DNA of 42,429 bases from a virus (lineage: Duplodnaviria; Caudoviricetes): positions 1 to 42,429 of IMG/VR virus record IMGVR_UViG_3300037834_000035; one strand, 5' to 3'. A program made the translations under genes and the position numbers. Shown here in pieces: positions 1-19,024 of the stretch. A model generated the notes under the pieces. That model searched no databases. It was not told the origin of the DNA and saw nothing but the letters and a program-made list of their open reading frames with translations. How positions within the stretch are numbered: the stretch's first letter is position 1; each line of letters starts with the position of its first letter.

Positions 1-1116
1 TCAGGTGTCCGACAGGCGCTTCTTTTCGCTGGGCTTTTCAGGCGCGGCCTCGTCGATTGTGCCGTATGCGTGCCGCAGCTTCCGGCGCAGGTCGGCCCGG
101 GAAGTGTGGGCATAGCGCATCGTCGACTGGATGCTCTCGTGCCCAAGGAGCTCCTTCACGGCGGCCAGGTCTCCAGTGTGGCGGAGGAAGGTGGTAGCCG
201 CGTGGTGCCGCGCATCGTGCGCCGGCCGGGCCCCTGACAGACCGGCCTCGTCCAGGGCGCGATCCGACGCCGACTGGAAGCCGCGGGGCGCGATCGGGCG
301 CAGGGAGCCGTTCTTCATCTCCCGGAACCAGACAGTGTCCACCTCCGCAGCCCGGGCCCTTCCCAAGCGCGCGCGCATGAGCGCAGCGTCCTCGTCGATA
401 AGCGTGACGACGTGCGGCTCGCCGTTCTTCCGGTCCCTCAGGTGCACGTCCATGACGTCGCCGTGGTCGTGGATGGCGTCGAGCGGGAAGAAGGCCTCCC
501 TGAGCCTCACGCCATAGCGGAGCATGAAGTCCAGCACCGGGCGATGCCAGACCGGCAGGCCGGCCCTCCATGCGGCGATCTGGTCGGGGTTGAAAGGATG
601 GTGCCGGCCCTTGGCTTCGGGAAGTCGCAGCTTCCTCCAGGGGATCGCCTTCACCTCGGCCTCGAGGTTCTCCGCTGCATATCGGAGGATCGGCCGGAGC
701 GTGCTGTCGATCATGTCCCGGTTGACCGTCGCGTTGGACGGCACGGCGCCGGTGTCCTTGCGGTTCTTGCCGCGGCGGATGGGCTCCACCCGGCGATCGT
801 TCAGAGCCTGGGTGATCATCCGGGCACCGATCTCTCTGACGAGCGTCGTGCCGGGCACGTGGCGCAGCATGATCTTGATCCGGTCGGCGGTGTCCTGCGC
901 CGACTTGGATCCGACTCGCACGTCTCGGAACCAGATGTCGGCAGCGTCGGCTAGCGTGAGCCTCTGCTGTAGACCTCCCATGAGCGCCCGCCGGTGCTCA
1001 CGCTTCTCGATGACGAGCGCATCTTCCTTGAGCCGCGCGCTGGTCGAGCCGCGGAATCGTTCGCCGCGGACGGTGAAGTCGTACCACCAGATTTCGCCGC
1101 GCTTGAAGACGGACAC
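1..1116 (-). CDS. int: Tyrosine integrase
   Basis: N-terminal arm-binding WWYDFTVRGERFRGST; catalytic R (GVRLRE), K (RKNG), HxxR (HDARH), LLGH, Y (TMRY). GTG start at 1116 preceded by GGAGG. Confidence 0.95.
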   Translation of the reverse strand: MSVFKRGEIWWYDFTVRGERFRGSTSARLKEDALVIEKREHRRALMGGLQQRLTLADAADIWFRDVRVGSKSAQDTADRIKIMLRHVPGTTLVREIGARMITQALNDRRVEPIRRGKNRKDTGAVPSNATVNRDMIDSTLRPILRYAAENLEAEVKAIPWRKLRLPEAKGRHHPFNPDQIAAWRAGLPVWHRPVLDFMLRYGVRLREAFFPLDAIHDHGDVMDVHLRDRKNGEPHVVTLIDEDAALMRARLGRARAAEVDTVWFREMKNGSLRPIAPRGFQSASDRALDEAGLSGARPAHDARHHAATTFLRHTGDLAAVKELLGHESIQSTMRYAHTSRADLRRKLRHAYGTIDEAAPEKPSEKKRLSDT

Positions 1117-1292
1117 GTCAGTGCCTCCAGATAAGCCGTCAGATCGTCCCGACGGACGCGCCACCGCCGCCCGATCTTGCCGGCGCGCAGGGCCCCGCTG
1201 CCGATGATCTCGCGCAGGGCATGCTCGCCGACCTGCAGTTCGGCCATCACTTGGCCGAAGGTCAACACCGCGTTGTCGTTCGCGGCTTTCAT
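951..1292 (-). CDS. xis: Excisionase-like HTH protein with low-complexity C-terminal tail overlapping int
   Basis: LTFGQVMAELQV...GALRAGKIGRRWRVRRDDLTAYL (HTH_17-like), directly upstream of int; ATGA-coupled to previous gene. Confidence 0.8.
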   Translation of the reverse strand: MKAANDNAVLTFGQVMAELQVGEHALREIIGSGALRAGKIGRRWRVRRDDLTAYLEALTCPSSSAAKSGGTTSPSAANDSAARPARGSRKMRSSSRSVSTGGRSWEVYSRGSR

Positions 1293-1693
1293 CTCCAGAT
1301 CCCGCGCCGCGCGCCACGGGCCTCCGCTTCCTCGTCACGGTACTCCCGGCCATAGGTCGGGTCTGCGATCACCAGCCCCTCGCGCACCATCTGACCGCCC
1401 AGGTCGCGGCCGTCGACCGAGCACCGGATCACCAGCCTGTCGTAGCGGTCGACGTCCATGATCTCGCAGCGCGCGCCGTGGGGCGTCAGGGTTCGGGCCC
1501 GCGTCTCCGCCGGCTGGGCATGGCGGCGGTTCTCCGGGAGGCAGGCCCAGATCGTCGGTTGGTTGCGGCACCGGGTGAACGGCGCGGCCTCTGCGGCGTC
1601 CACGCCGTGCAGACGGAAGCGTCGGCCTTCGCAGCGTCCGCTGTCGCCGTCGCTCCAGGTCATAACCGTGCAGATCAGGAAGGTGCCGATCAT
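1289..1693 (-). CDS. Thermonuclease (SNase-like) family protein
   Basis: DGDS, RLHGVDAAE, DRYDRL, MVREGL, ARGARRGIW motifs. Confidence 0.85.
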   Translation of the reverse strand: MIGTFLICTVMTWSDGDSGRCEGRRFRLHGVDAAEAAPFTRCRNQPTIWACLPENRRHAQPAETRARTLTPHGARCEIMDVDRYDRLVIRCSVDGRDLGGQMVREGLVIADPTYGREYRDEEAEARGARRGIWR

Positions 1694-1743
1694 CGCGACA
1701 CCCTATCAGCGGCCGGCGCGGAGAAGGAGACGGGGGCGGTCAT
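1690..1743 (-). CDS. 17-aa mini-ORF (MTAPVSFSAPAADRVSR), possible translational-coupling peptide
   Basis: ATGA overlaps at both ends, exactly bridging the methyltransferase stop and the nuclease start. Confidence 0.45.
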   Translation of the reverse strand: MTAPVSFSAPAADRVSR

Positions 1744-2495
1744 GCTGCGAGCCTTTGGGAGGAGATGGCGGACATGAGTTGGCGGCCGAGGTGTTCCGTG
1801 TAGGCCGGCGGGATGGCCTCGCTCATCCCGTTCAGAGTCGCCCAGTCCATACCCATGGCTTCGGACGCCGCGCCGGCATGTCCGCCCTCCCACACGTCGC
1901 GCGTGCCCCGGCCGCCGTGCTTGGCGGACCGCTTTCGGGCGTGACCGCCATAGACGCCGATGGTCGGCAGATCGGAATGCGCGCACGGGCCGGGCGGCGA
2001 GATCGGGAGGTTCGCCATGAACAGCCGGTGACGGCGCAGCTCGCAGCCCTGCGCCCCGAGCGCGAACATGGTCCCGCAGAGCGTGATGGCCCCCGGCATC
2101 CACGGTTCAGCCCCTTCGACGTTCTCGATGATCCATGGCAGACCTGTGGCCTCCAGAAGGGCCAGCGTGGCCGGGATCAGGTTCGGATGCTCCTTCTTGC
2201 CCGGCGCCCGCATCCGGGTCAGCCCCTGGCAGATCGGGGAGGCGTGGACGGCGTCGAAGTTGGCGGCGATCCATTCCGGGGCGAGGGCCAGAGCGTCGGC
2301 CTGCATGAAGGCGAACGGGTAGCGGGGGCGGGCCACGATGTCGACGCCCGTCACGTCCCAGCCGGCGCGGTCGTAACCGACACCCGCGCCACCCTCGCAG
2401 CAGAACAGGTCTAGCAGACGCGGACGGCGGCCCTCGGTATCACCCTGGCCCCCGGCCGGTGTGGAGCCTGTCAGGGCGGAATGAACCCCCTTCAT
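1740..2495 (-). CDS. Phage C5-cytosine DNA methyltransferase-like protein
   Basis: Motif I LDLFCCEGG, motif IV ASPICQ, motif VI IENV, motif VIII-like RRHRLF, C-terminal EAIPPAY. Confidence 0.85.
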   Translation of the reverse strand: MKGVHSALTGSTPAGGQGDTEGRRPRLLDLFCCEGGAGVGYDRAGWDVTGVDIVARPRYPFAFMQADALALAPEWIAANFDAVHASPICQGLTRMRAPGKKEHPNLIPATLALLEATGLPWIIENVEGAEPWMPGAITLCGTMFALGAQGCELRRHRLFMANLPISPPGPCAHSDLPTIGVYGGHARKRSAKHGGRGTRDVWEGGHAGAASEAMGMDWATLNGMSEAIPPAYTEHLGRQLMSAISSQRLAA

Positions 2496-2941
2496 CCCTT
2501 GTCTCCAGCGGAGAAGCCGTAGCCCTGCAGAATGAGCGGGATGACGTTTCCGTCGCCATCGCCCGGATGCAGGTCATCGGCCAGCAGGACGAGCTCCCGA
2601 AGCCAGTCCCTCGGCACCATGACCATGTCCTCGGGAAGGGCGGGGGCGGGTCCGATGACGCCGAGGGCTTGGACCATATGCTGCCCTGCCGCACGGAATG
2701 CCTCGGCCTCGCTGGCACCCGCGAGGAAAATCCAGACATCCGTTTCAGGGTCGCCCGCGCGCCAAGCCACCGCTTCCCCCGGACTGCGGAGAGCATCGGC
2801 CATCTGTTCCAGAAGGTCGCGGAGGTTGCTTCCCTCGTGCATCCGTTCGGCGTGCGCGCGGGCGCAGGCGATCAGTTCAGGCACGCTCATGTCGTCGCGG
2901 CACAGACCATCACCAGCGGGGGCTTTATCGGTCTGGGTCAT
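2492..2941 (-). CDS. Hypothetical phage protein
   Basis: ATGA-coupled ORF in leftward operon with GGAG RBS. Confidence 0.65.
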   Translation of the reverse strand: MTQTDKAPAGDGLCRDDMSVPELIACARAHAERMHEGSNLRDLLEQMADALRSPGEAVAWRAGDPETDVWIFLAGASEAEAFRAAGQHMVQALGVIGPAPALPEDMVMVPRDWLRELVLLADDLHPGDGDGNVIPLILQGYGFSAGDKG

Positions 2942-3186
2942 GCTCCCGGCTCCTTCTGGTTGTCAGCCGCGCGCGTGCAAGTTATGCACAGCATCTGGTC
3001 GTTCTGGACACTGCACGATCCGTCGAAGATGCTTTTGCCGACGACATATCCGCCGCGAACGGCGTCCTCTGCAAAGTCGAAGATCGACCATCCCGAAGGG
3101 AGATTGCGGGCAGGGTCTAGCCTGACCTCGAACTGCGAGCCGCAGTTATCGCACTCGATCTTGGCTTTGATTGCCTCGACGCTCAT
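2938..3186 (-). CDS. Small Zn-ribbon protein
   Basis: CDNC and CITC pairs; ATGA-coupled. Confidence 0.7.
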   Translation of the reverse strand: MSVEAIKAKIECDNCGSQFEVRLDPARNLPSGWSIFDFAEDAVRGGYVVGKSIFDGSCSVQNDQMLCITCTRAADNQKEPGA

Positions 3187-3199
3187 GCTCCCGGCTCCT
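2938..3199 (-). repeat. 17-bp gene-junction direct repeat (AGGAGCCGGGAGCATGA on minus strand)
   Basis: TCATGCTCCCGGCTCCT at 2938-2954 and 3183-3199, flanking the Zn-ribbon gene. Confidence 0.85.
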
Positions 3200-3968
3200 G
3201 CTTTGCATGGGCGGCGAGGGCTTGGCGGGCGCGCTGACCATGATCCCGCGACAGGCGGATCGTAGGTTCAGGAGCATCGCGCGGGCCGATGGCCGGAACC
3301 GTCCATTCGTTCGCGTAGAACTCGACAGCCTTCCGCAGATCAGCGGCCTCGGCTTCGGCGCGTTCTGCCCGCCTGTTCGCGGCTTCCAGTGCATCGGCGG
3401 CGGACTGGCGGCGGTTCTCTAGCGCGGCCTGAATGATGTCGCAGCGGGCGTTAAGCGAAGCGTGGTTCCAGCCGTAGATTTTTGCCCACTGCTGGCCGTC
3501 CACATACATGCGGCGGTCGTTATCGTTGCTGCTGTCATTCACCCACGTCACTCGATAGGCCACCGTCTCCAGCCCATCCACAGGCAAGGGGGAGGGAGAC
3601 GAGGACTGCTGGGCTGACGGCTGTTCTCTGGCAATGCGGGCTTGGTCAGCACCGATCAGGCTGGCGAGCAGATCAGTCGTTCCGGCCTCCGACTGCTGGG
3701 GCCGCATTTCGTCGTCGGTCATGGCGTTGAAGTCGTGCAGGCGCTGTCGGTATTCCCCCGCCTCCGACTGCTGGGCGGCGGGCTGGGCGAGGCGGCGCGC
3801 AATGTCGGCCACGGTGTCCCCGTTGAGCCGTAGCAATGCCTCGAAGGCGTCGGAGGCGTCGCCCTCGTTCTGGACGTGCGTCAGCCACTCGGCCAGCAAG
3901 TTCAGGGCGTCGGCGGCTTCCGTCACAGGCCGATGCCGCAGCACGGGGGAGGTTGGGGCGGTCATCAA
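3183..3968 (-). CDS. Hypothetical phage protein with QQSEAG repeats and coiled coil
   Basis: Coupled ORF; QQSEAG twice plus QQSS; ends KQEPGA. Confidence 0.65.
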   Translation of the reverse strand: MMTAPTSPVLRHRPVTEAADALNLLAEWLTHVQNEGDASDAFEALLRLNGDTVADIARRLAQPAAQQSEAGEYRQRLHDFNAMTDDEMRPQQSEAGTTDLLASLIGADQARIAREQPSAQQSSSPSPLPVDGLETVAYRVTWVNDSSNDNDRRMYVDGQQWAKIYGWNHASLNARCDIIQAALENRRQSAADALEAANRRAERAEAEAADLRKAVEFYANEWTVPAIGPRDAPEPTIRLSRDHGQRARQALAAHAKQEPGA

Positions 3969-4273
3969 TCAAACTCCGATCTGATCTTCTCTCCCGCCGC
4001 GTTCCAAGCGATGGTGTCGCCGTTGTGCTCCAGCAAAGTCGTGATTTCTTCGGGCTTGCATCCGAACACCTCGGGCATAGGCTCGGCACGAAACTCGCGC
4101 ACGTCGCATCCCGCGATGCTCTTACGAATGCCGAAGCACTGGTTTGCGTAAGTGTAGAACTCTTCCTCTACTGTCTCGCGTGTGAACGCGCCCCAGAAAA
4201 GGGCTTGGCCGAAGCCGTAGTTGATGCGTGCAAAGTTCGTCAGCACCAGCGAGGGAGTGGTCGTATCAGTCAT
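3965..4273 (-). CDS. Hypothetical protein
   Basis: Overlapping-coupled ORF, visibly more AT-rich than its neighbours. Confidence 0.65.
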   Translation of the reverse strand: MTDTTTPSLVLTNFARINYGFGQALFWGAFTRETVEEEFYTYANQCFGIRKSIAGCDVREFRAEPMPEVFGCKPEEITTLLEHNGDTIAWNAAGEKIRSEFD

Positions 4274-5502: not shown

Positions 5503-5849
5503 TGTCCGCGAGCCTTTTGAAGAGCGGTGACAGCCCTGCGGATATCCCCCAGCGTCAGCGAGTAATCGGTCGTGCGCCCGAATCTGACGGTGACGGGCGT
5601 TTCGTCCGGGAAGTCCTCAGACCCCTCACTGGCCAGATCAGCGAACGGCTGAGCGGCTTCGGCCAGATCAGGAGCGGCGGCGATCAGGCGGGCGTTGGCT
5701 TCAGCCTCGAAGCGGCCGGGCGTTCCCTCCCACACGGGAACGGTCGTGACTTTCGCGCGCCACTTCGGCCGGTTGGAGGGATAGACCGCGACGCCTGTCT
5801 TCAGGAGGTGAACCTCCCAAGGCCCCTTCGTCCAATCTTCGTTCTTCAT
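5499..5849 (-). CDS. Conserved phage hypothetical protein
   Basis: TKGPW...EANARLIAAAPDL motif common in phage early genes. Confidence 0.75.
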   Translation of the reverse strand: MKNEDWTKGPWEVHLLKTGVAVYPSNRPKWRAKVTTVPVWEGTPGRFEAEANARLIAAAPDLAEAAQPFADLASEGSEDFPDETPVTVRFGRTTDYSLTLGDIRRAVTALQKARGQ

Positions 5850-6190
5850 TGGTCAGATCCTCGGAAAAGGTCGGGCTGTTCGGTGTGGAGGGTGTCGAGC
5901 CAGGCGAACTGCGGAGCCATCTCGCGCTCCCGCCCGGCCCAGCGTTCGCGGGCGTGGATGATGGCGGCGGTCAGGGCTGCGTCACGGTCCGGGTAGTGCC
6001 GGTCGGCGCTGGGCCCGCCGGGAGAGAAGCCCAGCGGCCCGCCGGCTCCCCAGCAATCTCCGCCCCGCTGTTGGTGGCCGAGGGCGAAGAACCAACGCCC
6101 TTCGCGCTCACCCAAGCGGATGCTGGCAATGCAACCGCCCTTGTCCCGGCACTCCAGGTATTCGGACTGTTCGACATCGACGAAGGTCAC
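5846..6190 (-). CDS. Hypothetical protein
   Basis: GTGA/ATGA-coupled ORF. Confidence 0.65.
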   Translation of the reverse strand: MTFVDVEQSEYLECRDKGGCIASIRLGEREGRWFFALGHQQRGGDCWGAGGPLGFSPGGPSADRHYPDRDAALTAAIIHARERWAGREREMAPQFAWLDTLHTEQPDLFRGSDQ

Positions 6191-6630: not shown

Positions 6631-7232
6631 CAGTCGGTCCGATCGCCCGGGAAGTCGTCGTCGGCCTTCGCTGCTGCCGCCTTCAGTTCTGCGTCCAGCG
6701 TCGGTTTCGCCGCGGCCTTCTGGTCACGCGTCAGTCCGTCCCACCACGCGGTGAGTGCGGCCCCGCCCTGCTTCGCGGCTTCACGGCCCGCGGTCAGGAT
6801 CGTCAGTAGGTCTTCGCTCTCGACCGGGTCGGGCTTCTCCGGGGGCAGCGATTTCACCGTGTAGGGCTTGCGGCTCGCCCTAGTGGCCGTCAGAGCCATG
6901 GTGATGTCGCGGTCGATGTCGGACAGGTGCGAGATGCGGATGCCGCCGACGGCGTCGCCGCCGAACTTCACGCTATCGTCGCGGTAGAGCCGCATCCGGC
7001 GCCCGGCGTACTTGGACCCGTCGCCGCCCCAGCAGTGCACCATGACCCGGCGCATCGACTTGCAGGGCTTGTACGGCTTGCCGCTGTCGCCTTCGTAGTG
7101 GACTGCCACCGGCTGGTCGGCCTCGCCGCAGAGCGCGACCTTCGACACGGTGATGGTCAGCGTCCGGCCGATCAGATCGTCGGCGTTCAGCTGGTCGCTC
7201 TTCGGAGCGATCGTCTTCGTCAGGTCGGTCAA
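6630..7232 (-). CDS. Conserved phage protein downstream of exonuclease (candidate annealase/ssDNA-binding partner)
   Basis: TTG start at 7232 with AGGAG RBS, overlapping the YqaJ stop; N-terminus TDLTKTIAPKSDQLNADDLIG; acidic C-terminus DDDFPGDRTD. Confidence 0.7.
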   Translation of the reverse strand: MTDLTKTIAPKSDQLNADDLIGRTLTITVSKVALCGEADQPVAVHYEGDSGKPYKPCKSMRRVMVHCWGGDGSKYAGRRMRLYRDDSVKFGGDAVGGIRISHLSDIDRDITMALTATRASRKPYTVKSLPPEKPDPVESEDLLTILTAGREAAKQGGAALTAWWDGLTRDQKAAAKPTLDAELKAAAAKADDDFPGDRTD

Positions 7233-7975
7233 AGGGTGATCTCCTGTTCCACCCGACGCTCGGTCGGGATCAGCCTCGCGTCCGACCGCAGGACCGCGGC
7301 GAATTCGATCAGCTTGGTGTCGATGCGGTCGTGGAAGGCCGACGCGGCTTCGATGATGGCGGTCTGGATTTCGCGGTCGGGGAAGACGCGGACAGTCGCC
7401 ATCGGCAGCCCAGCCGAGTAGCTGATGAAGTCCAGCCACTTCCGTTTCGAGACCAGCAGGCCGGTCTGGATCTGGAGCATGAATTCGGCAGGCGCCGTCT
7501 TCTTCGTCACGCATTCCAGGATCGTCTCGACGTGGAACTTGTGCCGCCGGGACTTCACCTCGATCAGGCCTTCGTCGCCGACTAGCCCGTCCGGGGAATA
7601 GCCGAGGGTGAAGCCCCACTCGTCGTTGGTGATGAAGCCGCAGTCCTCGACCTGCGCGTAGTGCTGGGCATACGCGGCCTTGGCGTCGATCTCGTCCTCA
7701 TAGCCCCGCAGCATGTCGTCGCCGATGAAGCCCGGCTCCACGAAGCCGACGATCCGCTGGGCCAGAAGGTTGTAAAGGTGGGCCCGCTCCTTCTCGTTCG
7801 CGGCCACCTTCAGCGTCGGCGTCAGGATCAGCTTCATCTCGCTGGCCGTCAGGACGCCGCACCGCATGGCGAACCATTCGGCGCTGCCCTGGGCGACGTT
7901 CGGATGGTGCACGACCCCGTTGGGACCGGGCGCGCGGACGTCGTTGGCCGGCTTGGGTAGCGGGCGGGCGGTCAC
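7229..7975 (-). CDS. YqaJ/lambda-exonuclease family 5'-3' exonuclease
   Basis: QGSAEWFAMRCGVLTASE, YSPDGLVGDEGLIEVK (PD-D/ExK), QIQTGL. Confidence 0.92.
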   Translation of the reverse strand: MTARPLPKPANDVRAPGPNGVVHHPNVAQGSAEWFAMRCGVLTASEMKLILTPTLKVAANEKERAHLYNLLAQRIVGFVEPGFIGDDMLRGYEDEIDAKAAYAQHYAQVEDCGFITNDEWGFTLGYSPDGLVGDEGLIEVKSRRHKFHVETILECVTKKTAPAEFMLQIQTGLLVSKRKWLDFISYSAGLPMATVRVFPDREIQTAIIEAASAFHDRIDTKLIEFAAVLRSDARLIPTERRVEQEITL

Positions 7976-8533: not shown

Positions 8534-8811
8534 TGCGACGGCCCTCCGACGTTGTCCTTCGCCCACTCGGCCGCGAAGGCGAGCGCCTGACGGACCTCCC
8601 CCTTGCCCTCCGGATGAGCGCCGACCGCGATCCCGTCGATGCTGTCACAGTGGCCGTCGATCCAAGCGACGACCGCGAACCGTGCGTTGGTGCCGCCGAA
8701 GACATGGTCGGCGTAGGCGCAAGCCTCGCCCACCATGTCGGCGAACGTCTCGGCCTTCTGTTCGGCCGTCAGGTTTTCACCGTCGGGAATGAGGAAGGGG
8801 CTCATGCTCAC
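8530..8811 (-). CDS. Hypothetical protein
   Basis: GTG 8811 (or ATG 8805), overlapping the upstream stop. Confidence 0.65.
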   Translation of the reverse strand: MSMSPFLIPDGENLTAEQKAETFADMVGEACAYADHVFGGTNARFAVVAWIDGHCDSIDGIAVGAHPEGKGEVRQALAFAAEWAKDNVGGPSQ

Positions 8812-9491
8812 GCCGCCCTCGCCACTTCCACCGCATCGTTCGCGGCGGCAGGTTGAGGGGGAAGGCCACGGTCCAGCGTGAAGGCCGAGACGACCTTCGA
8901 ATCCCAGTAGTCGCCCATCCAGCTCTCGACGACGGCCCGGCCCCAGAAGGCGTGGACCATCTTCGCGGTGCCGTGGCGCTTCGGATCGAAGCGGGCGATC
9001 TGGCCCAGCCACTGCCCGCCCGGCTCGGTCAGGACGGCCACGTGGACGCCGTCGCCCCAGACGAAGAACATGACGTCCCCCGGCTCGGCACGGCTGGGCT
9101 TCACCTCACGGAAGCCGTAGCTGCCCAGCACCGCACGGGCGTTGGCCTCGGTCACGGCGCCGTAACCCACGGTCCGACGTTCGAAGTCCAGGGCGGTGTC
9201 GCACCCGGCGCGTTCAGCACAGGCCCGGATCAGCGACCACGCATCGTGGCCACCCGCCCGCCCGGCGTGGACGTACGAGGTGCCGATCAGGTCCAGCGCG
9301 GCTTCCAGAAACAGCGCCCGCGGCGAGCCCGCTTCCGGAGCCTCCCAGCGGCCCGCATGGGCCCGCGCCTCGACCAGCGCCCGGCTGCCCCGTTTCGCCT
9401 GAACCGCGTCATCGACGGACTGCAGAACCTGCATCATCGGGCCGGAGATCGGCGTCAGCCCGGCGCTCGGTTGGGGGTGGTGGATCGACAT
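8808..9491 (-). CDS. NlpC/P60-like protein, catalytic Cys apparently replaced by Ala
   Basis: AALDLIGTSYVHAGR..GHDAWSLIR, PGDVMFF, HVAVL, MVHAFWGRAVVES; start ATG 9491; first gene of PL operon. Confidence 0.75.
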   Translation of the reverse strand: MSIHHPQPSAGLTPISGPMMQVLQSVDDAVQAKRGSRALVEARAHAGRWEAPEAGSPRALFLEAALDLIGTSYVHAGRAGGHDAWSLIRACAERAGCDTALDFERRTVGYGAVTEANARAVLGSYGFREVKPSRAEPGDVMFFVWGDGVHVAVLTEPGGQWLGQIARFDPKRHGTAKMVHAFWGRAVVESWMGDYWDSKVVSAFTLDRGLPPQPAAANDAVEVARAA

Positions 9492-9599: not shown

Positions 9600-9845
9600 A
9601 TGATCCGGACGGTTGTGGTGTGCGCGGCTATGGCACTGGCCGGGTGCGGAGGCGCGAGCGAGCCGGAAGAGACCTATCAACTCGTACAGGCTCTGGGGAA
9701 TGCGGAGCACGTGGCCGGGCGCGGACTGACGAAGACCGAGTGTGAATCGCGGAAAGTCGACCTCAAAGCGACCGCGACGGCGCTGGGGACTTACAACGAG
9801 GCCACGGGGCACGGATCCATCACCTGCCTGCCGGAAAGCCTATGA
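9600..9845 (+). CDS. Lipoprotein (moron)
   Basis: MIRTVVVCAAMALAGC lipobox; GGAGG RBS; two further Cys. Confidence 0.75.
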   Translation: MIRTVVVCAAMALAGCGGASEPEETYQLVQALGNAEHVAGRGLTKTECESRKVDLKATATALGTYNEATGHGSITCLPESL

Positions 9846-10651
9846 GCTTCTGGAAGCGTTTGCTCGGGCTTGAGCCCAGCGATCCACCCCGCGCCGCCCA
9901 AACGCAGGCCGCATCGCTGAGCATGATCGCTTGGCGGGATGGCTCTTTTCCGATGCAGGTCGTCGGCGAGTCTTACTGCCAGGATGCCCTGATTGCCATT
10001 TGCGGCCGCCACACTCGTTACGGCTACGAGGGCGAGCACGTCGCTTCGCTTCGAAGGGATACGCGCAATACGCACGACCCGGACGCAGTAGAGGTGGTCA
10101 TCGACGGGCGACGCGTGGGCTATCTTGAGCGAGAGCAGGCGCGACGCGTGAGCTCGCAACTTAACGATGCCAACCTATCGGCGGTCCGATGCAAGGCCCG
10201 TATCCGGGGAGGCTGGCGGACTAACCAGCATGACGAGGGACACTATGGCGTGGCCCTCAGTGTGCCGAACATGGGCTGGATCGACTTCGGAATCGGAGCA
10301 TCGCCTCCTCCGCCCGAGCCGCGAAAGCCTCCTGTGCGCAGGCCCATGCCGACTCCGGCGGAACATGGGCCGCTCTCGGGTGAGCGTATCCACCTCTGGG
10401 GCGAACATCCTCCCGGCGTAGTCGCGAGCGAGCTGGCCTCCCTTGGCGCGAAGCTGATGTCAGGGATCGGGAAAAGCACCACCATGTTGGTGATCGTCGA
10501 ATCGGAGCCCTGGTCGTTCGGTCTTCGCAGATCGGCTACGATGGTAAAGGCGCGTGATCTCGCGGAAGGCGGACAGAAAATTCGTATCCTGTCTCTGGCT
10601 GCGCTGCGGGCTGAGTTGAGCGTCGAACCCAGAGGTAGTTCCCATGAATGA
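9842..10651 (+). CDS. HIRAN domain plus C-terminal BRCT-like domain protein
   Basis: VVGESYCQ...RNTHDPDAVEV.IDGRRVGYL (HIRAN); Pro linker; PLSGERIHLWG...LGAKLMSGIGKSTTMLVI...KARDL...KIRILS (BRCT-like). Confidence 0.75.
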   Translation: MSFWKRLLGLEPSDPPRAAQTQAASLSMIAWRDGSFPMQVVGESYCQDALIAICGRHTRYGYEGEHVASLRRDTRNTHDPDAVEVVIDGRRVGYLEREQARRVSSQLNDANLSAVRCKARIRGGWRTNQHDEGHYGVALSVPNMGWIDFGIGASPPPPEPRKPPVRRPMPTPAEHGPLSGERIHLWGEHPPGVVASELASLGAKLMSGIGKSTTMLVIVESEPWSFGLRRSATMVKARDLAEGGQKIRILSLAALRAELSVEPRGSSHE

Positions 10652-11036: not shown

Positions 11037-11711
11037 TCAGAACAGTGTGATCTTCGCCAGCAGCAAGCCGGTAACCTGCACCTCAATGTCCCCGCCGTCC
11101 TCGTGATCGAGGCGTACGGGCTCTGACCAGCGCGGGTTCGTCGAGCGAGGCCACAGCACCAGGCCGTCGGCCGTAACCTCGACCTCCTTCAGCGTGATCT
11201 CCCGAAGACCCCCAGCCCGCGTGCGCACGACCTCAACGATCATCCCGGTGTTCAGGTTCACCCCGGCACCGGTCAGGTCCACGATATGCACGAAGTCGCC
11301 GGGGAAGATGTTCCGGGCGTTCATGCTGTCGCCTTGGACCTCGCGCAGCCACTGATCAGCGTGCGGGTAGCGGCGGTCACGGGCGGCCGGCCTGATCTCC
11401 GGCTCGTCCTGATTGCTGTCGTCGATGGCCAACCAGGCCCCGGCCTGAATCGACCCCAGCACAGGCAGTCCCGTGATCTCTGGGTCAACGGCAACCGGTT
11501 CGGCTGAGCCGCGGCCGTAGAGGATCCATTCAGGGGCGACCCGAAAGAACCGGCCGTAGCGGGCCACGCGCGCGGGCGGCATGCCCCGTCCACCGTTCTC
11601 ATGCTGGATGTAGGTGGCCACCGGGACGCCCATGGCTTCGGCCGCGCTCTTGGCGGTGTCGTAACCCGCGTTGATGCGGGCTTCTCTCAGGCGCTCGTCG
11701 GGCGTCGACAT
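11037..11711 (-). CDS. cI: CI-like repressor (HTH plus S24 autopeptidase)
   Basis: N-terminal HTH (RLREARINAG..AAEAMGV..YIQHENG), AG cleavage site (IQAGAW), GDSMN Ser, TLKE Lys; start ATG 11711. Confidence 0.92.
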   Translation of the reverse strand: MSTPDERLREARINAGYDTAKSAAEAMGVPVATYIQHENGGRGMPPARVARYGRFFRVAPEWILYGRGSAEPVAVDPEITGLPVLGSIQAGAWLAIDDSNQDEPEIRPAARDRRYPHADQWLREVQGDSMNARNIFPGDFVHIVDLTGAGVNLNTGMIVEVVRTRAGGLREITLKEVEVTADGLVLWPRSTNPRWSEPVRLDHEDGGDIEVQVTGLLLAKITLF

Positions 11712-11712
11712 G

Positions 11713-11780: not shown

Positions 11781-11786
11781 CATGGC

Positions 11787-12023
11787 ATGAGAACCCACGC
11801 AGAGATCATCAAGCAGGGCGGAACCGACGCCATTGTGGAGCGCGCGGGTCTGCCGGTGTCAGTGCACACGGTCCGCTCTTGGCGCCAGCGCGGGGCAATC
11901 CCCGGCGAGTATTGGAAAGCCATCAGCGACGCGGGGCTGGCCTCGCTCGATGAGCTGGCCTCAGCCGCGGCCGCGCGTCTCCCCGCCAATGACGACACCC
12001 ACCGCCAGGGAGAGGCGGCGTGA
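11787..12023 (+). CDS. cro: Cro-like HTH protein
   Basis: Small HTH (VSVHTVRSWRQRGAIP) divergent from cI; start ATG 11787; C-terminus PANDDTHRQGEAA. Confidence 0.85.
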   Translation: MRTHAEIIKQGGTDAIVERAGLPVSVHTVRSWRQRGAIPGEYWKAISDAGLASLDELASAAAARLPANDDTHRQGEAA

Positions 12024-12033
12024 GGGAGATCAT

Positions 12034-12680: not shown

Positions 12681-12980
12681 ATGCTGAGCCTCGACGCCCT
12701 GACCCGTGCAGCCGAGGTCTACGACGCGATCATCGCCGCCGACGCCTACCGGGAGAAGGTGGCCGCCAAGGGCGACAAGCCGGATTTCGGGCCGTGGCTG
12801 GCGGGTCTCGCCGGGATCGTCCGGGCCGAACGCCCAGTCGTCGCCGGGATCATCGGAACCCTCGAAATCATCGAGGCCGCCATGCCCGGTCGAGAAGCCC
12901 CAACGGCTCCCGTCTGCCCTCCTGCCGCCAACGACCAACACCCCACGTCTCCTGAACAACCCGGACCGCGTATCGCCTGA
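12681..12980 (+). CDS. Hypothetical protein
   Basis: ATG 12681 (MLSLDALTRAAE); phage-like codon use; contains PAANDQ. Confidence 0.55.
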   Translation: MLSLDALTRAAEVYDAIIAADAYREKVAAKGDKPDFGPWLAGLAGIVRAERPVVAGIIGTLEIIEAAMPGREAPTAPVCPPAANDQHPTSPEQPGPRIA

Positions 12981-13022
12981 CAGGCGCGCGCGGGTCACCG
13001 GAAAACACTGACGGAACATTCC

Positions 13023-13463: not shown

Positions 13464-13513
13464 CCCCACGGGACCGACCGCCCCGTTGAGCCGGTCGAGA
13501 ATGGAGGGCCGTC

Positions 13514-14113
13514 ATGGCCAAGAAACTGACGAGCGAGGCAGAAGGGGGCGATCCCAAGTCGATCCCCAACCGCAACGAGGAGGCGGTCTTCCTGTCGCAC
13601 CTGAACAGGCTGCGGCAGCAGGCGTCCAAGGCCGAGGCCAAGAAGGCGGAATACGACGCCGAGAAGGCCGCTCTGACCGACCTGTTCCGGCAGGCGAAGG
13701 CCGACGGGTTCAGCCGGAAGGAACTGCAGGCGATCCTGGACGACAGCGCCTCCAGCCGCCGCGACCTGCTGTCAGAAGAAGAGCGCCGCGCCAAGCTGCG
13801 GTCGTGGGCCGGTCTGCCGGCCGGGACGCAGGCCGACTTGTTCGCCGGGCCGTCAGCCGCCTTCGACGAACTCGCGGCCGAGGGTCAGGGCTACACGGCG
13901 GGGCTCCGGGGCGACGACTCCAAGATGCCCGACACCTATCCGGCTCACTATGCCCCCGCGTTCATGCGCGGCTGGCATGCCGGACAGGAGAAGCTGGCCT
14001 GGGCTCTGTCCGAAGCCGGGACCAACCCGGAGCGGAAGGACACGGGCGTGCAGGCCCAGCCCATCGCGCCGGCCAACGACGAAGGCGATGACGCCCGGCA
14101 GGAAGCTGCCTGA
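13514..14113 (+). CDS. GapR(DUF2312)-like N-terminus plus RMF-like C-terminal domain protein
   Basis: EKAALTDLFRQAKADGFSRKELQAIL (GapR-like); QGYTAGLRG...YP...FMRGWHAG (RMF-like); GGAGG RBS. Confidence 0.6.
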   Translation: MAKKLTSEAEGGDPKSIPNRNEEAVFLSHLNRLRQQASKAEAKKAEYDAEKAALTDLFRQAKADGFSRKELQAILDDSASSRRDLLSEEERRAKLRSWAGLPAGTQADLFAGPSAAFDELAAEGQGYTAGLRGDDSKMPDTYPAHYAPAFMRGWHAGQEKLAWALSEAGTNPERKDTGVQAQPIAPANDEGDDARQEAA

Positions 14114-14622
14114 TGATCGTCCTGGGGCTCGACCTCGCCACCGTCACCGGCTTCTGCCACGGCCCCGCCGACACGGGCGAGGTGCCGACGATTGGCCACA
14201 CCCGCCTGCCCAGCACCGGCCCCGACGTCGGGGTCTTCCTGCTGGCGTGGGAGGATTGGCTGACCGAGACGCTGGAGAAGGTCGAGCCCCGCCTCGTTGT
14301 CTTCGAGGCTCCGATCCTGCCGGCCGCCACGACCGTCTCGACCACGCGCAAACTGCAGGGGCAGGCGGGCGTGACCGAGATGGTCGCGGTCCGGGCCGGG
14401 ATCGAATGCGCAGAGGTCGCGACGTCTCAGGTGAAGAAGGCCCTGACCGGCTCCGGCAAGGCCGACAAGGCCCAGATGGTCGCGGCCGCCCGCCACTACG
14501 GCTTCACCCCTGCGGTCCCCGACGAGGCCGACGCTTTCGGCGTCTGGCTGTGCGCGGTGCGGCTCCGCTTTCCCAGCCTCGCCGGGCTCTGGGATCCCAT
14601 GAACTTCAGGAGGGCGTCATGA
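14113..14622 (+). CDS. RuvC-like Holliday junction resolvase
   Basis: VLGLDLA, VFE, QVKKALTGSGKADKAQM, DEADA. Confidence 0.88.
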   Translation: MIVLGLDLATVTGFCHGPADTGEVPTIGHTRLPSTGPDVGVFLLAWEDWLTETLEKVEPRLVVFEAPILPAATTVSTTRKLQGQAGVTEMVAVRAGIECAEVATSQVKKALTGSGKADKAQMVAAARHYGFTPAVPDEADAFGVWLCAVRLRFPSLAGLWDPMNFRRAS

Positions 14623-15212
14623 ACGGAAACTGGTCGGATGAGGAACTCGCTCTGTGCAGGCGGCTCTACATCGACGAGGGCAAGAGCGCGGCTGAGACGG
14701 CCCGCTTGCTGCCCGGCCGGACCCGGAACAGCGTGGTCGGCATCTCGCATCGGAAGGGCTGGGGCAAGGACGCCCGGATGGAGCCGGCAAAGCCGACCAT
14801 GGTGCGCCCGCCCCGTGCCCCCGTAGTCATGCCCCGGATCAAGCCCGAAGCCATGCGCCGGCCGCCCCGCCAGAAGGACGTCGGCAAGGCTCCTGTCGTC
14901 TTCGCGAATCAGAAGTTCGACCACGTCCACGGTGACGAACTCGAGCAGCGCCGCGAAGAACGCCGGGCCTATGGACAGTCCAAGCTGGACGCATTCGCAG
15001 CGGCCAACGACGACGCGATCCAGCTGATCGCCCGCCGGTTCGGGCAGTGCGCGTGGCCCGTCGGCGAGCCTGACCGCCCGGAAGGCCAGCTGTGCTGCGG
15101 AGCCGTGGCGATCGAGGCCAAGCCGTACTGTGCCCACCATGCGGCGGTCGCCTATCAGCCCCTGACGCCGAAGCAGAAAGACCTCGTTCGCTCGCTCCGG
15201 AGGTTCGCATGA
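14619..15212 (+). CDS. gcrA: GcrA-like cell-cycle regulator
   Basis: NWSDEE...EGKSAAETAR...TRNSVVGISHRKG and C-terminal CAWPVGEP...CCG...PYCAHHAAVAY; start ATG 14619. Confidence 0.88.
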   Translation: MNGNWSDEELALCRRLYIDEGKSAAETARLLPGRTRNSVVGISHRKGWGKDARMEPAKPTMVRPPRAPVVMPRIKPEAMRRPPRQKDVGKAPVVFANQKFDHVHGDELEQRREERRAYGQSKLDAFAAANDDAIQLIARRFGQCAWPVGEPDRPEGQLCCGAVAIEAKPYCAHHAAVAYQPLTPKQKDLVRSLRRFA

Positions 15213-15400
15213 AGCCCCGCGCCATCTCCGACGCCGTGCAGCGCGGCGACACCGTCCGCATCGAGACGGCGAAGATAGAGGGCTCGCTGCGGGTCATCCG
15301 CGACCTGGCTGGGCCTCAGGGTGCCGCCACGGCCGCCAACTTGGCCCTGAAGCGCGTGATCAGGGCCCACATGAACGACAACGACGGATGGGTGGCATGA
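15209..15400 (+). CDS. Hypothetical protein
   Basis: ATGA-coupled; GGAGG RBS; start 15209. Confidence 0.65.
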   Translation: MKPRAISDAVQRGDTVRIETAKIEGSLRVIRDLAGPQGAATAANLALKRVIRAHMNDNDGWVA

Positions 15401-15735
15401 GCGGCCGCGCGACATACCTGGCCGAACGGATCGACCGCCGACGCGAGCGGGAGGAGACGCGCGAGATGCGCCAAGCCCGGCGCCGGCACCTGACCGCGCG
15501 CGCCGCATCGGTACTGCTCTGCGAGATCGGCGAGATTCCCGAGGAAGAGCGCCCGGCCTATGCGGAGCTGCTCTGCGCCGCCGTCCGGGCCCAGCTGGTG
15601 ATCCACCATGGGGAAGCCTCCGCAGCCGCCATTCTGGCGCGGGAGGCCCATGAGGCAGGGCGGAACTTGATGCCGAAGAGCGCGGCGCGGGATGCCGCGG
15701 AGAAGGTGTTCCGGGGGGCGGCGAACGATGAATAG
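15397..15735 (+). CDS. Hypothetical protein
   Basis: ATGA-coupled start 15397; ends GAANDE. Confidence 0.65.
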   Translation: MSGRATYLAERIDRRREREETREMRQARRRHLTARAASVLLCEIGEIPEEERPAYAELLCAAVRAQLVIHHGEASAAAILAREAHEAGRNLMPKSAARDAAEKVFRGAANDE

Positions 15736-15910
15736 AGCCGACCTCCTCGACTTCGAACGCTACTACGCCCGCACCCTTCGCCGGGAGGCCTCCAAGCGCG
15801 CCAAGAAGGCCCCGGCCGTGGCGGAGCAGCTGTCCCGATGGGCAGATGCCGCAGAATCACGGGCCGAGGCCATCAGGTTCGGGCCCTTGTTCGATCGGGA
15901 GGGCGCATGA
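15728..15910 (+). CDS. Hypothetical protein
   Basis: ATG 15728 (MNRADLLDF); coupled to dnaB. Confidence 0.6.
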   Translation: MNRADLLDFERYYARTLRREASKRAKKAPAVAEQLSRWADAAESRAEAIRFGPLFDREGA

Positions 15911-17310
15911 TCGTCGAGCCCACCCCCAGAGCGACGCCACAGAACCTCGAGGCGGAACAGGCCCTGCTGGGTGTCGTCATGTTCGACAACGACGCCCTCC
16001 GGGTCGTGAAGCACCTTCTGGCGCCCGAAGACTTCCATGAGCCGTTCCACGGTCGCCTCTGGGCCCAGATGGTCGTCAAGGCCGATAAGGGCCTGCTGGC
16101 CGATCCCATGACGCTCCATGAAGCGCTGGCCGAAGACCCCGCGCTCCAGCAGCTGGGCGGCGTCTGGTATCTCGCCGATCTGGTCGACCGGGCCCCGCCC
16201 ACGCGTGTGGTGCGAGACTATGCGGAGCAGATCGCCGAACTCTCCCTGCGCCGGCGCCTGATCGATCTTGCCGAACAGGCCAGCGAAGCGGCCCACGACC
16301 GGTCACTCTCGGCCTTCGAGGCCCTTTCCCGCGCCCGGTCGGCCATGGAGGATGCGGAGCGGACCGCCGCGCCCGACGACGCCACCTTCGTCAACGCCCA
16401 TGAGAGCGGACTCTCGCTCATGGAGAAGGTCGTCAACGACGTCACCGAAGGCCGAGTGAAGGGCATCAAGTGCGGCCTGTCGTGCGTCGATCGCCGGTTG
16501 GGCGGGCTGCTGCCCGGATCCGTGGTCGTGATCGCCGGCCGCCCCGGCATGGGCAAGACGGCGCTGCTGGGCAACATCATCTACGGTGCCGCGGTCCTGA
16601 ACCCCGGCAAGCTATTCGCGGCCCTGTCGCTGGAGATGGACACCGACCAGCTCAACGAGCGGGCCTTCTCGCGCCTGACGGCCGAGCGGGACGTCCAGGT
16701 GCCCTATGCGGACATCGGCAAGCGGAAGCTGAGCGCGATGGACCTCGACGCCCTTTCCGTCGTCAAGGACATGCTGCCCGCCAACCTGTGGCTTCGCGAC
16801 CGAGCGGGAGCGTCGGTCGAGGACGTCGCCAAGGCCGTCTGGTCCATGAAGCGCCGCGGCGACCTGGCGTGCGTCGGCATCGACTACCTGCAGCTCATGC
16901 GCCGGCCCGCCCTTGCCGGCCGGAACGAGGCCAGCGCGATCGCCGAAATGACCGGGGCCCTCAAGACACTCGCCCGGGACGCCAAGATCACGATCGTGCT
17001 GCTGTCCCAACTGAACCGATCGGTCGAAAGCCGCGACGACAAGCGGCCCCAGCTGTCCGACCTGCGAGAATCCGGTTCGATCGAGCAGGACGCCGACGCG
17101 GTGCTGTTCCCCTTCCGGGAGGTCTACTACCTCCAGAAGGCGGAGCCGAAGACAGGTACACAAGAGCACCTCGATTGGGAGATGCGCGTCCATGACCTGC
17201 GCCGGCACATGGACGTCATCATCGCCAAGAACCGCCACGGGTCCGAAGGCGCCGAGCCCCAGGACTATCAGCCGGAGTTCGACCTGATCATGGATAGGAG
17301 GGCCGCATGA
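15907..17310 (+). CDS. dnaB: DnaB-like replicative helicase
   Basis: PQNLEAEQALLG, Walker A GRPGMGKT, IDYLQL, LSQLNR, DLRESGSIEQDAD, AKNRHG; start ATG 15907. Confidence 0.95.
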   Translation: MIVEPTPRATPQNLEAEQALLGVVMFDNDALRVVKHLLAPEDFHEPFHGRLWAQMVVKADKGLLADPMTLHEALAEDPALQQLGGVWYLADLVDRAPPTRVVRDYAEQIAELSLRRRLIDLAEQASEAAHDRSLSAFEALSRARSAMEDAERTAAPDDATFVNAHESGLSLMEKVVNDVTEGRVKGIKCGLSCVDRRLGGLLPGSVVVIAGRPGMGKTALLGNIIYGAAVLNPGKLFAALSLEMDTDQLNERAFSRLTAERDVQVPYADIGKRKLSAMDLDALSVVKDMLPANLWLRDRAGASVEDVAKAVWSMKRRGDLACVGIDYLQLMRRPALAGRNEASAIAEMTGALKTLARDAKITIVLLSQLNRSVESRDDKRPQLSDLRESGSIEQDADAVLFPFREVYYLQKAEPKTGTQEHLDWEMRVHDLRRHMDVIIAKNRHGSEGAEPQDYQPEFDLIMDRRAA

Positions 17311-18236
17311 GGAAGGGCCAGAACTTCTACCGCCGCGATCCGTCCAAGGCTCTCTCCGGCATGATCGGCCTGAGCTTGGAGGAGCGCGGAGTCTACAACA
17401 CCGTCCTGGACCTGCTCTATTCGACGTGGCGTCCGATCGAAGACGACCGCCCCTTCATTTCCAACTGGTGCGGCTGTGCCGTCCAGAAGCTGAACCCGAT
17501 CATCCGACGTCTGATCGACAAGGGCCGCCTGATCACCTTCGAGGAGGGTGGGCGCACCTACCTGTCAGACGAGGCCTTCGAGGCCGAACGGGCGAGTGTG
17601 AAGGGAGCCGCCTCGAGCCGCTCCGGACGGGCTCTGGTCGAGGAGAAGTCGGGAGAAGTCCAGGAGAAGTCGGCAGGTGTCGGGGAGAACGCCGGACTTC
17701 TCGACAGCCAAACCCAAGAAAATCAGTCGGATGCGCGCCTAGAGAAGAATAGAGAAGAGAAGAAACACCCCCCTACCCCCCAAGGGGGCAAACGGAGGAA
17801 GCCTGAAACCCCTCTCCCCGACGGGTGTCCGTCCGCCGAGCTCATCCACGCCATGCAGACCGAAGCCCGATCCGAGGGCGCGAACATCGACCTGAGCCGA
17901 GAAGCCAAGGTGTTCCGGGACTGGTGGACGTCCAAGGACGGCCGGCACCGCGATTGGGCCGCGGCATGGCGCACCTGGGCCCGGAAGGCCATCGCCAAAG
18001 CGCCCCGGACCGCGGTCGCGGCGGTCGCCGCTCGCTCCGGTCCCACCGATCCCAACGCCCGCTGGACCTCCGCAGTCCGGGAGTTCCGGTCCAACGGCTA
18101 CTGGCCCCGTGACGACCTCGGCCCGCCGCCAGGCCGGGAGGGTTGCCGGTGCCCGCCTGACGTCCTCGCCGCCCACGGGATCGCCCAGCCGAAGCCCGTC
18201 GCCAACGATCTATTTCCCCAGGAGCAAGCCGTATGA
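17307..18236 (+). CDS. DUF1376/YdaU-type replication initiator
   Basis: N-terminal LSLEERGVYNTVLDLLY; central iteron region; C-terminal FRDWW...DWAAAWRTW domain. Confidence 0.82.
   Translation: MRKGQNFYRRDPSKALSGMIGLSLEERGVYNTVLDLLYSTWRPIEDDRPFISNWCGCAVQKLNPIIRRLIDKGRLITFEEGGRTYLSDEAFEAERASVKGAASSRSGRALVEEKSGEVQEKSAGVGENAGLLDSQTQENQSDARLEKNREEKKHPPTPQGGKRRKPETPLPDGCPSAELIHAMQTEARSEGANIDLSREAKVFRDWWTSKDGRHRDWAAAWRTWARKAIAKAPRTAVAAVAARSGPTDPNARWTSAVREFRSNGYWPRDDLGPPPGREGCRCPPDVLAAHGIAQPKPVANDLFPQEQAV
17642..17765 (+). repeat. Putative replication origin: GGAGAAGTC iterons plus purine tract
   Basis: GGAGAAGTC at 17642, 17652, 17663; partial at 17684; inverted GACTTCTC at 17695; AG-rich tract about 17740-17765. 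Confidence 0.65.
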
Positions 18237-19024
18237 GCCGTCGCGCCTTCCGCCCGAACAAAGCCCGGCCCTCGGCTCCGCGGACGATCGGTGCCGCCAA
18301 CGACGACGCCCCCGGCATCGCCAACGACAACGACCGGATCCAGGTCGGCGGGGTGCTGCTGACGGCTGAGCAGACACGCCGCTTCCGGAGGGCCGAGGAG
18401 AACGCGGCCAGCGAGGATCACCGGCTGAAGGTGTCCGGACGGGCGGCGCTGGTTCAGCTGGAGGGGGAGATCGCGGACGCGGCCGATCGCCAGCGTGTCG
18501 CCGCCGACCTGGTCGAGACCCGCGCTCTGGAGGAAGCCCGCGGCGCCACGATCGAGGTGTCGAACCGGCCGGAGCACAGGGGCCGCATCCGCATCGCGAG
18601 CCGGGACGGTCTGGAGACGCTGATGACGGCAGGCTCGCTTACGTCGAACCAATACGCCGCCGGGCTCCGCTACCGCGCCGACTATGAGCACTTGGATCCG
18701 GAGCGGGGCCTTACGCCTCCGGCGCTCGACCAGACCCGGCGCATCGGGCGAGGCGGAGAGGGTTGGGCGAAGCGATTGGAGGAGATCAGGACGCGGGTAG
18801 AAGGGCTGGAGCGAGCCATTCAGGCAGAGGACCCGACGTTCAGGGGTGCCGCTGCGGTCAACCCCGTGCATCGGGTCGGGCGTCGCGTGTGGGCGCTAAG
18901 GGAGGTTGCGGGAAAGGGTTCGAACCTCTCCGCCCTGAGCAGCAGTGGCTCGTCTCAGCTGGCGTATTCGGATGCTCTTCGATCGGCGCTGGATGCCGCA
19001 TCGATCGTCTACAGCTTGGAGTGA
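18233..19024 (+). CDS. DUF6456-like protein in the Q/late-regulator position
   Basis: LETLMTAGSLTSNQYAAGLRYRADYE motif; last early gene before the late region. Confidence 0.6.
   Translation: MSRRAFRPNKARPSAPRTIGAANDDAPGIANDNDRIQVGGVLLTAEQTRRFRRAEENAASEDHRLKVSGRAALVQLEGEIADAADRQRVAADLVETRALEEARGATIEVSNRPEHRGRIRIASRDGLETLMTAGSLTSNQYAAGLRYRADYEHLDPERGLTPPALDQTRRIGRGGEGWAKRLEEIRTRVEGLERAIQAEDPTFRGAAAVNPVHRVGRRVWALREVAGKGSNLSALSSSGSSQLAYSDALRSALDAASIVYSLE

Follow-up and report, generated by a model that had tools for sequence, protein, structure and literature searches.

The virus record IMGVR_UViG_3300037834_000035 of IMG/VR (positions 1 to 42,429, the whole stretch analysed and hereafter the window) is a complete provirus of 42.4 kb with a G+C content of 67%. 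Its gene order is lambda-like: integrase and excisionase (Xis) genes, a leftward early operon, the CI and Cro genes, a rightward operon carrying CII-like, RuvC-like, GcrA-like, DnaB and initiator genes, and genes for head, tail and lysis. The subject of this report is the tripeptide Ala-Asn-Asp (AND), which recurs in the early proteins and is also present in the ssrA tag that transfer-messenger RNA (tmRNA) adds to stalled chains. The host is likely Brevundimonas or close kin, since the organism names on homologs of one early protein, gp13514, are Brevundimonas every time a name is given. A DNA search of phages returned no match to a close named phage, and a plasmid search was likewise empty.

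A six-frame scan of the window located 15 AND tripeptides. Twelve are in frame and all of these lie in 10 early genes, while the remaining three (30493, 39061 and 42316) lie outside annotated gene frames. A sequence-only reading of this DNA had described 12 xAND sites in 10 early proteins as a genome-wide mimicry of the ssrA tag. The scan recovered the same genes, frames and quoted flanks, and the codon variation described at the sites is indeed seen. The AAND motif announced in that reading overstates the case, as AAND itself occurs at 7 of the 12 sites, next to PAND at three and VAND and IAND at one each; "genome-wide" is also too strong, the carriers amounting to about a quarter of the early proteins. 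Its protein labels are backed by Pfam for Xis, YqaJ, NlpC/P60, GcrA and DUF1376, and no Pfam match (E 0.01) was obtained for the proteins called GapR-like, DUF6456-like and Cro.

Counts were based on a hand-made table of 74 genes, comprising 39 early genes at 1-19024 (6,266 aa) and 35 genes beyond 19030 (7,461 aa). In the early set, the 12 sites compare with 1.27 expected, and 5,000 composition-matched, per-protein shuffles peaked at 6. AND is the most enriched early tripeptide (Poisson 1.2e-8; ~1e-4 when corrected for 8,000 tripeptides), and 11 sites, with one of the two Xis sites dropped, still give 1e-7. No AND was found in the 35 genes beyond 19030 against 2.1 expected, a depletion that is not significant alone (p 0.13); the contrast between early genes and the rest is significant by sites (p 8e-5) and by proteins (10/39 vs 0/35, p 0.001). 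The AND pattern is real and well beyond chance.

When the second Xis site is set aside, six sites are C-terminal, four are N-terminal and one is internal. Positions in tails are given for the A of AND, counted back from the C-terminus. The NlpC/P60-like protein (8808-9491, minus strand) has AAND at -11 (nt 8835-8843) and an RAA end; two relatives feature VNDN or SNDN at the equivalent place, with an Ala-Ala (AA) end. Its gene is in the early leftward operon and not with the tail genes, a placement also seen in relatives. The Cro-position protein (11787-12023, plus strand), named Cro because its gene sits opposite the S24-peptidase repressor gene, has PAND at -12 (nt 11985-11993) and an EAA end. 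An unknown 99-aa protein (12681-12980, plus strand) has AAND at -17 (nt 12927-12935) and an IA end, and tails in its family end in VA or PA. The DUF1376 replication-initiator-like protein (17307-18236, plus strand; Pfam) has VAND at -11 (nt 18201-18209) and an AV end; among the carriers, its tail is the best match to the Caulobacter tag and is merged with a DLF motif. In an unknown 112-aa protein (15397-15735, plus strand), AAND lies at -4 (nt 15721-15729) with no AA end, and relatives carry AND at -7 to -10, also with no AA end.

The sixth protein of this group, gp13514 (13514-14113, plus strand; no Pfam match), has PAND at -13 (nt 14072-14080) and an EAA end. Its site lies in a tail of unconserved sequence with a predicted local distance difference test score (pLDDT) below 50, which is predicted to be disordered. 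ND falls within the last 20 residues in 69 of 91 homologs, and 82 of the 91 end in AA. The alignment used 56 of the 91 homologs, with near-duplicates and most long ND-less tails removed, and the conservation of N188/D189 in it is biased accordingly. True Ala-Ala ends are thus found in 3 of the 10 carriers (NlpC/P60-like, Cro and gp13514), and the six C-terminal-site proteins end in AA (three), IA (one), AV (one) or, with AND at -4, in no AA (one). As a separate observation, the C-terminal domain of gp13514 (residues ~115-167) bears a weak likeness to ribosome modulation factor (RMF; Foldseek E 0.4-1.4, profile E 0.016-0.036), and PF04957 is present in one distant homolog; judging from these models, gp13514 may be a hibernation-factor-like phage domain fused to a helical N-terminal part.

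The N-terminal sites are found in three proteins. Xis (951-1292, minus strand; HTH_17 by Pfam) carries AND at residue 4 (nt 1275-1283), which is kept in relatives. The second, at residue 77 (nt 1056-1064), falls inside the overlap with the integrase start, where the other frame encodes the integrase N-terminus, and is absent from the ortholog in relative G019, in which the N-terminal AND is retained; the second site is likely a by-product of the overlap. The overlap spans ~165 nt (951-1116) and is the same in G019. The YqaJ exonuclease (7229-7975, minus strand) has PAND at residue 10 (nt 7940-7948); the site belongs to an N-terminal extension upstream of the Pfam match, which begins at residue 33. 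A 263-aa protein encoded before the late genes (18233-19024, plus strand; no Pfam match) has AND at residues 22 and 30 (nt 18296-18304 and 18320-18328), and all of its 21 relatives carry AND, often as tandem ANDN. Two genes serve as contrast: the CI-like repressor (helix-turn-helix and S24 peptidase; 11037-11711, minus strand) and the tyrosine integrase (1-1116, minus strand) have neither AND nor an AA end.

The single internal site is that of the GcrA-like regulator (14619-15212, plus strand; Pfam), where AAND at residue 129 (nt 15003-15011) immediately precedes the Cys domain. It is retained in 28 of 29 relatives and falls at a helix/domain junction of moderate pLDDT. The earlier statement that sites lie in termini or linkers fits the disordered tail of gp13514, and is less apt for GcrA, which shows no clearly disordered linker; conserved like a structural residue, the GcrA site may be structural. 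More generally, the motif could be a chance product of an alanine-rich proteome, or a pool of unrelated structural uses such as helix capping, and FumC is an example of a structural AND that recurs in host genes. We consider this explanation very improbable for the set as a whole, as it is rejected by shuffle, family-level and permuted-pattern controls and agrees poorly with a tail site, that of gp13514, in low-confidence, unconserved sequence. It may apply to the GcrA site only.

The motif is not confined to the window. Among 33 loci around related DnaB genes, AND is found in the tails of many unrelated families. Related prophages were represented by 14 of 20 virus records, picked for length or diversity, the last 1-2 kb of two being left out. 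Genes were called with a custom script that recovered 69 of the 74 window genes, and the early/late split was made by eye on maps; AND counts in relatives are slightly low, because the gene caller misses some genes, Xis among them. Early AND exceeds expectation in 12 of the 14 relatives, the exceptions being G016, a more distant phage, and G018, which has only 4 early genes. The final 20 residues include AND in 28 of 283 early families, and none of the 214 late families has it there (Fisher 9.5e-8). The late proteins of the window lack AND, as the sequence-only reading stated; those of relatives carry it at background level overall (15.6 vs 12.6 expected per family draw), and never in the last 20 residues. 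With the window included and G016 left out, AND is the top tail tripeptide, present in 32 families against 4.4 in shuffled tails, and the tail consensus is [A/P/V]-A-N-D. AND is not among the top tripeptides in N-terminal 30-residue stretches, and the case for N-terminal sites therefore rests on conservation within families.

AND in tails is coupled to the C-terminal end. An AA end is found in 21 of 29 AND-tail families and in 51 of 248 other early families (p 3e-8). The commonest spacing places the A of AND at -11, as observed in 11 of 27 AA-ending family tails. Hydrophobic residues at -3 are rare in AND...AA families (0.2 of 21) and less so in the other AA families (14 of 62). Terminal AA as such is commonest in early families (72 of 277), followed by late (19 of 209) and host-type ones (6 of 180). 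The NVVxF/L motif, which resembles a ClpX-binding tail, is not enriched (5/277 early vs 9/209 late families). Early-protein AA ends without AND are common elsewhere (13/32, 14/51, 7/35 and 7/38 in examples from L388, L393, L396 and L412 and from Ssp-JY42, lambda and P22); they seem far more widespread than AND, partly via stop/start coupling. Another tail motif, DLF, is found in 8 early families vs 1.4 in shuffled tails and is often placed between AND and the final AA; examples are the window genes at 5846-6190, 13514-14113 and 17307-18236 and DUF1376 relatives in L021-L053. DLF resembles the sliding-clamp binding motif.

The distribution among regulators is asymmetric. In sets hand-selected from the gene maps of relatives, 10 of 11 Cro-position proteins, which belong to six sequence families, have an AND...AA tail. 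In contrast, AND is absent from all 11 CI-like proteins and all 9 integrases, none of which has an AA end, and also from 11 CII-like and 9 RuvC-like proteins.

The signal could in principle be a nucleic-acid element upstream of the next gene start, or a by-product of gene packing, in which case overlapping stop and start codons and ribosome-binding sites would give rise to the Ala-Ala ends. Packing does contribute: among early genes lacking AND, the end is AA in 88 of 254 that overlap the next start vs 22 of 143 free genes, so that stop/start coupling feeds AA ends in general, and the second Xis site is itself an overlap product. However, across the terminal 66 nt of 502 distinct early genes, the AND pattern is found 67 times in frame and twice off frame, and the same stretch of 432 late genes lacks it. 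Synonymous usage at the sites is near background: Asn and Asp codons match it, and Ala codons tilt to GCG (0.39 vs 0.28). The -11 spacing is found not only in overlapping tails (7/27) but also in free (5/14) and short-gap (5/7) tails, and among free genes an AA end is commoner with an AND tail than without one (10/18 vs 22/143). The AND signal is protein-level, and a nucleic-acid or packing origin is very unlikely; this reading and that of chance are largely excluded.

Host genes do not share the enrichment. Host-type genes around ssrA (27 mixed alphaproteobacterial loci of 8 kb or more, dereplicated, 180 families) have 10.4 AND vs 12.6 expected, and the sole AND in a host-type tail is that of an SspB linker. 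In G014, 32 host-like genes hold no AND vs 2.3 expected. In IMG/VR, we estimate from 27 of 64 parts of the collection that there are ~300 stretches of AAND-x6-AA-stop, the permuted control AADN yielding 58. The number of distinct open-frame tails is 97 for AAND (27 of 64 parts) and 17 for AADN (whole collection). A variable-gap scan (2 of 64 parts) gave 63 in-frame matches of 120, where ~43 were expected. Among 8 named phages, only Rhizobium phage 16-3 is enriched (13 AND vs 2.1 expected), and 12 of its sites are ANDN, like the tag; phiAX1, Ssp-JY42 and Asapag are at background. In loci selected for one motif match, with the selecting site counted, Asn follows AND at 65 of 80 sites in 11 16-3-like loci and at 88 of 152 sites in 52 other loci. 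Short AAND-x6-AA proteins in L197, L245, L189 and L265 have a different upstream signature, with few or no other AND in the loci where these were counted; they are perhaps Cro-like proteins of non-alphaproteobacterial phages.

The tag likeness was assessed against alphaproteobacterial tmRNA genes. The search pattern was pre-set to ANDN[FY]AE, and tags beginning otherwise are thus invisible to it. It returned 119 metagenome loci, of which 116 read as AA-ending tags. In these, AND is at -12 or -13 with a single exception, and 114 of the 116 have L, V or I before AA. Of 80 alphaproteobacterial loci with flanks, 59 have an sspB gene next to ssrA (PF04386, PDB 2qas), and SspB at loci with Caulobacter-type tags bears Caulobacter and Phenylobacterium names. 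No alphaproteobacterial tmRNA was found in the provirus or in the fetched viral loci. For Caulobacter, PMC9393093 gives the tag as AANDNFAEEFAVAA and mentions an sspB deletion. In E. coli, SspB binds the initial seven residues of the tag and ClpX its ALAA end, as described in PMC9963277. Ala-Ala is required but does not suffice, and polar residues upstream of it are disfavoured and weaken the signal, according to the account in PMC10862746; weak ends can be made degradable by SspB, as noted in PMC8512704. A C-terminal AA is presented as a hallmark of ClpXP substrates in Caulobacter in passages of PMC5324124 and PMC8119881.

Together, these features suggest that the motif is probably a bipartite degron of ssrA type built into the proteins, in which an SspB site is followed by a weak ClpX end, and that it would make Cro and the lytic early proteins short-lived. 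The phage lineage has spread a short linear motif, [A/P]-A-N-D, over the flexible ends of numerous early proteins. AND would serve as a docking site for SspB, the adaptor of the host, and SspB would deliver the carrier to ClpXP via the Ala-Ala end. As polar residues precede them, the Ala-Ala ends are expected to be weak, adaptor-dependent ClpX signals like that of the DAS+4 degron. Cro, Xis and the replication/recombination proteins would be short-lived and the repressor would persist, such that leaky lytic expression would be damped in the lysogen and early proteins cleared once their genes are shut off. At N-terminal and internal sites, SspB may tether the protein while ClpX engages another end. 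The mimicry proposed earlier is partly supported: the signal is protein-level, spans many unrelated families, is coupled to AA at about tag length and marks Cro and not CI, and the tag of related hosts is of the ANDN...AA type, with sspB next to ssrA. The match to the tag is limited to three residues, and in this lineage AND is usually followed by a residue other than Asn; SspB binding and timed proteolysis are predicted steps.

Several observations weigh against this interpretation. No residue is conserved after AND in tails, AND alone being shared with the tag; the N-F/Y-A-E middle and the hydrophobic residue before AA, both expected of a bipartite ssrA-like degron, are missing, and the polar residue at -3 is confounded by the ribosome-binding site of the next gene. 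Asn directly follows AND at only 2 of the 12 window sites and at only 22 of 86 sites in 9 Brevundimonas-like loci (selecting site counted). In gp13514 homologs, the residue before ND is A in 41, D in 21, S in 5 and another in 2. The modal -11 is shorter than the spacing in any retrieved tag, and in the variable-gap scan spacers are spread over 3-11 with no peak at 6; the -11 peak is accordingly lineage-specific. Five of the 10 window carriers have no AA-like end after the motif. As half of the window sites are N-terminal, internal or without an AA end, they are not plain ssrA-type degrons, and N-terminal and internal sites require a different geometry from a tail degron. Among unselected phage loci around a recombination gene (80 fetched, 63 of 7 kb or more), 62 of the 63 are not enriched, and the enriched one is the same record as G006. 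Lambda, P22, D3 and S1 are at background for AND, and their hosts have SspB. A Brevundimonas tag or sspB was not found: an SspB scan of viral contigs gave 3 loci, none with tmRNA, and cluster names and literature were likewise unproductive. A single tmRNA contig from the only run containing the window aligns across the ANDNF portion of the tag, no differences being listed; it is not attributable to the host and carries no weight here. Finally, the E. coli and Caulobacter SspB systems are used orthogonally although both tags start with AAND, as reported in a passage of PMC8138137, so that Caulobacter-type SspB reads more than AAND.

As an alternative, the motif might be read not by SspB but by a phage protein or by a different protease or adaptor of the host, such as ClpA, Lon, Prc or some unknown factor of alphaproteobacteria; the likeness to the tag would then reflect a shared or merely similar reader. 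The actual consensus, x-N-D with A preferred, is looser than the tag, Asn at the fourth place is a minority in the Brevundimonas-like lineage, the motif is absent from phages of hosts that have SspB, and tagged proteins are also degraded by ClpA, Lon and FtsH (as listed in PMC8138137). The coupling to terminal Ala-Ala at a tag-like distance and the exact ANDN of rhizobial phages point instead to the tag's own pathway. Moreover, no adaptor or protease was detected in the early region of the provirus by Pfam (32 proteins) or PHROGs (15 proteins), with many genes unscanned or family-less. On balance, a reader other than SspB appears unlikely.

The sites without an AA end (15397 family, Xis and YqaJ) and the tandem N-terminal sites of the 18233 protein would also fit binding without delivery. 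Abundant early proteins might act as decoys that saturate SspB and slow the turnover of host substrates, or bound SspB might shield them from ClpAP. SspB is scarce in E. coli, at about 50-360 dimers per cell according to PMC9382460; in addition, SspB blocks recognition by ClpAP (PMC9963277), and AANDENY alone binds with no degradation (PMC8512704). Ala-Ala nevertheless follows most tail sites. One dedicated protein would suffice as a decoy, while ~10 unrelated carriers, with CI spared, are better explained by control of each carrier. We regard decoys or shields as quite unlikely, and retain the bipartite degron as the preferred explanation.

A wider proposal, which we put forward tentatively and which may well prove wrong, is that several alphaproteobacterial temperate-phage lineages independently wired the lysis-lysogeny switch and the early programme into the degradation queue of ribosome rescue. 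Tunable SspB degrons would be carried by Cro and by roughly one in four early proteins and not by CI, prophage induction would take the load on SspB-ClpXP as an input, whether set by stalled ribosomes, stress or cell-cycle stage, and the lineages would differ in form, with a relaxed AND-x at -11 in Brevundimonas vs ANDN in rhizobial phages.

Other features of the window and its relatives were recorded. A HicAB toxin-antitoxin pair (19062-19727, minus strand) separates the early and late modules, a gene with a HIRAN domain (9842-10651) adjoins the repressor gene, and a gene for an SOS-response-associated peptidase (SRAP; 41085-41804) lies close to the right end. The DnaB-like frame of G009 has 803 aa, with the Pfam domain in two pieces, suggesting an insertion such as an intein (G008:C1:30600-32800, G009:C1:30600-33600 and G020:C1:15500-16100). 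In G010 (C1:10000-25000), a second set of head/tail genes is nested in the late region, with its own small protein bearing an N-terminal ANDN.

No description of encoded tag-like motifs in phage proteins was found in the full-text literature, a search that most subscription journals fall outside. If the degron reading is true, a phage sets protein lifetimes programme-wide by copying a quality-control tag of its host, and the presence of the motif in Cro and not in CI adds a proteolytic layer to a lambda-like switch. SspB, whose listed substrates have so far been tagged chains and RseA, would gain dozens of natural substrates, and the tails would offer a natural collection of degron variants with which to map the specificity of alphaproteobacterial adaptors. 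Even with a reader other than SspB, AND is a recurrent linear motif under strong selection that has no described function. The window contributes a host order besides the rhizobial one, in which the motif is relaxed and spaced at -11, together with the contrast between Cro and CI and the controls for reading frame and gene coupling.

Among known systems, the closest is the native alphaproteobacterial tag with SspB and ClpXP (PF04386, PDB 2qas/2qaz). Like that tag, phage tails feature AND followed by a terminal Ala-Ala, over 11-16 residues. The native tag is encoded in tmRNA and is added to stalled chains by trans-translation, whereas the phage sites are in frame in ordinary genes; the phage copies lack its N-F/Y-A-E middle and its hydrophobic residue ahead of AA, phage spacing varies, and some phage copies are N-terminal or internal. 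By anatomy, phage tails would work like an encoded ssrA-type degron, yet strict membership fails. The (A)AND start is seen at the 12 window sites and as the top tail tripeptide in relatives. The terminal Ala-Ala at about tag length is seen in 3 of 10 window proteins (plus two with IA or AV) and in most AND-tail families, and not in N-terminal, internal or 15397-type cases. Of two proteins folded, gp13514 has an unstructured end and GcrA has its site at a junction. SspB with a matching tag is seen for Caulobacter and Phenylobacterium loci, not for this host.

Encoded signals of related type are known from hosts and from engineering. Caulobacter CdnL and sHSP1, which carry encoded ssrA-like ClpX signals, have the terminal Ala-Ala in common with phage tails; they are described by the AA end alone in the passages that deal with them, whereas the phage adds an upstream AND, on many unrelated proteins. 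RseA(1-108), a natural non-tmRNA substrate of E. coli SspB, is encoded, delivered by SspB to ClpXP and ends in VAA (PMC8138137), but it is a single host protein exposed by cleavage, and its degron as listed there has no AND. The engineered DAS+4 degron places an SspB site upstream of a weakened ClpX end, and phage tails have polar residues before AA; unlike them, DAS+4 is synthetic, keeps the whole AANDENY site and has LAA replaced by DAS. Phages are also known to use host Clp proteolysis, as in the degrons of lambda O and MuA, but these are single proteins with other signals (as summarized in PMC8138137). Likewise, the adaptor-like protein Gp53 of SPO1 and the role of ClpX in Staphylococcus prophage induction, as outlined in PMC6873191 and PMC10584840, represent steering of host Clp and not, in those accounts, a programme-wide tag-like motif.

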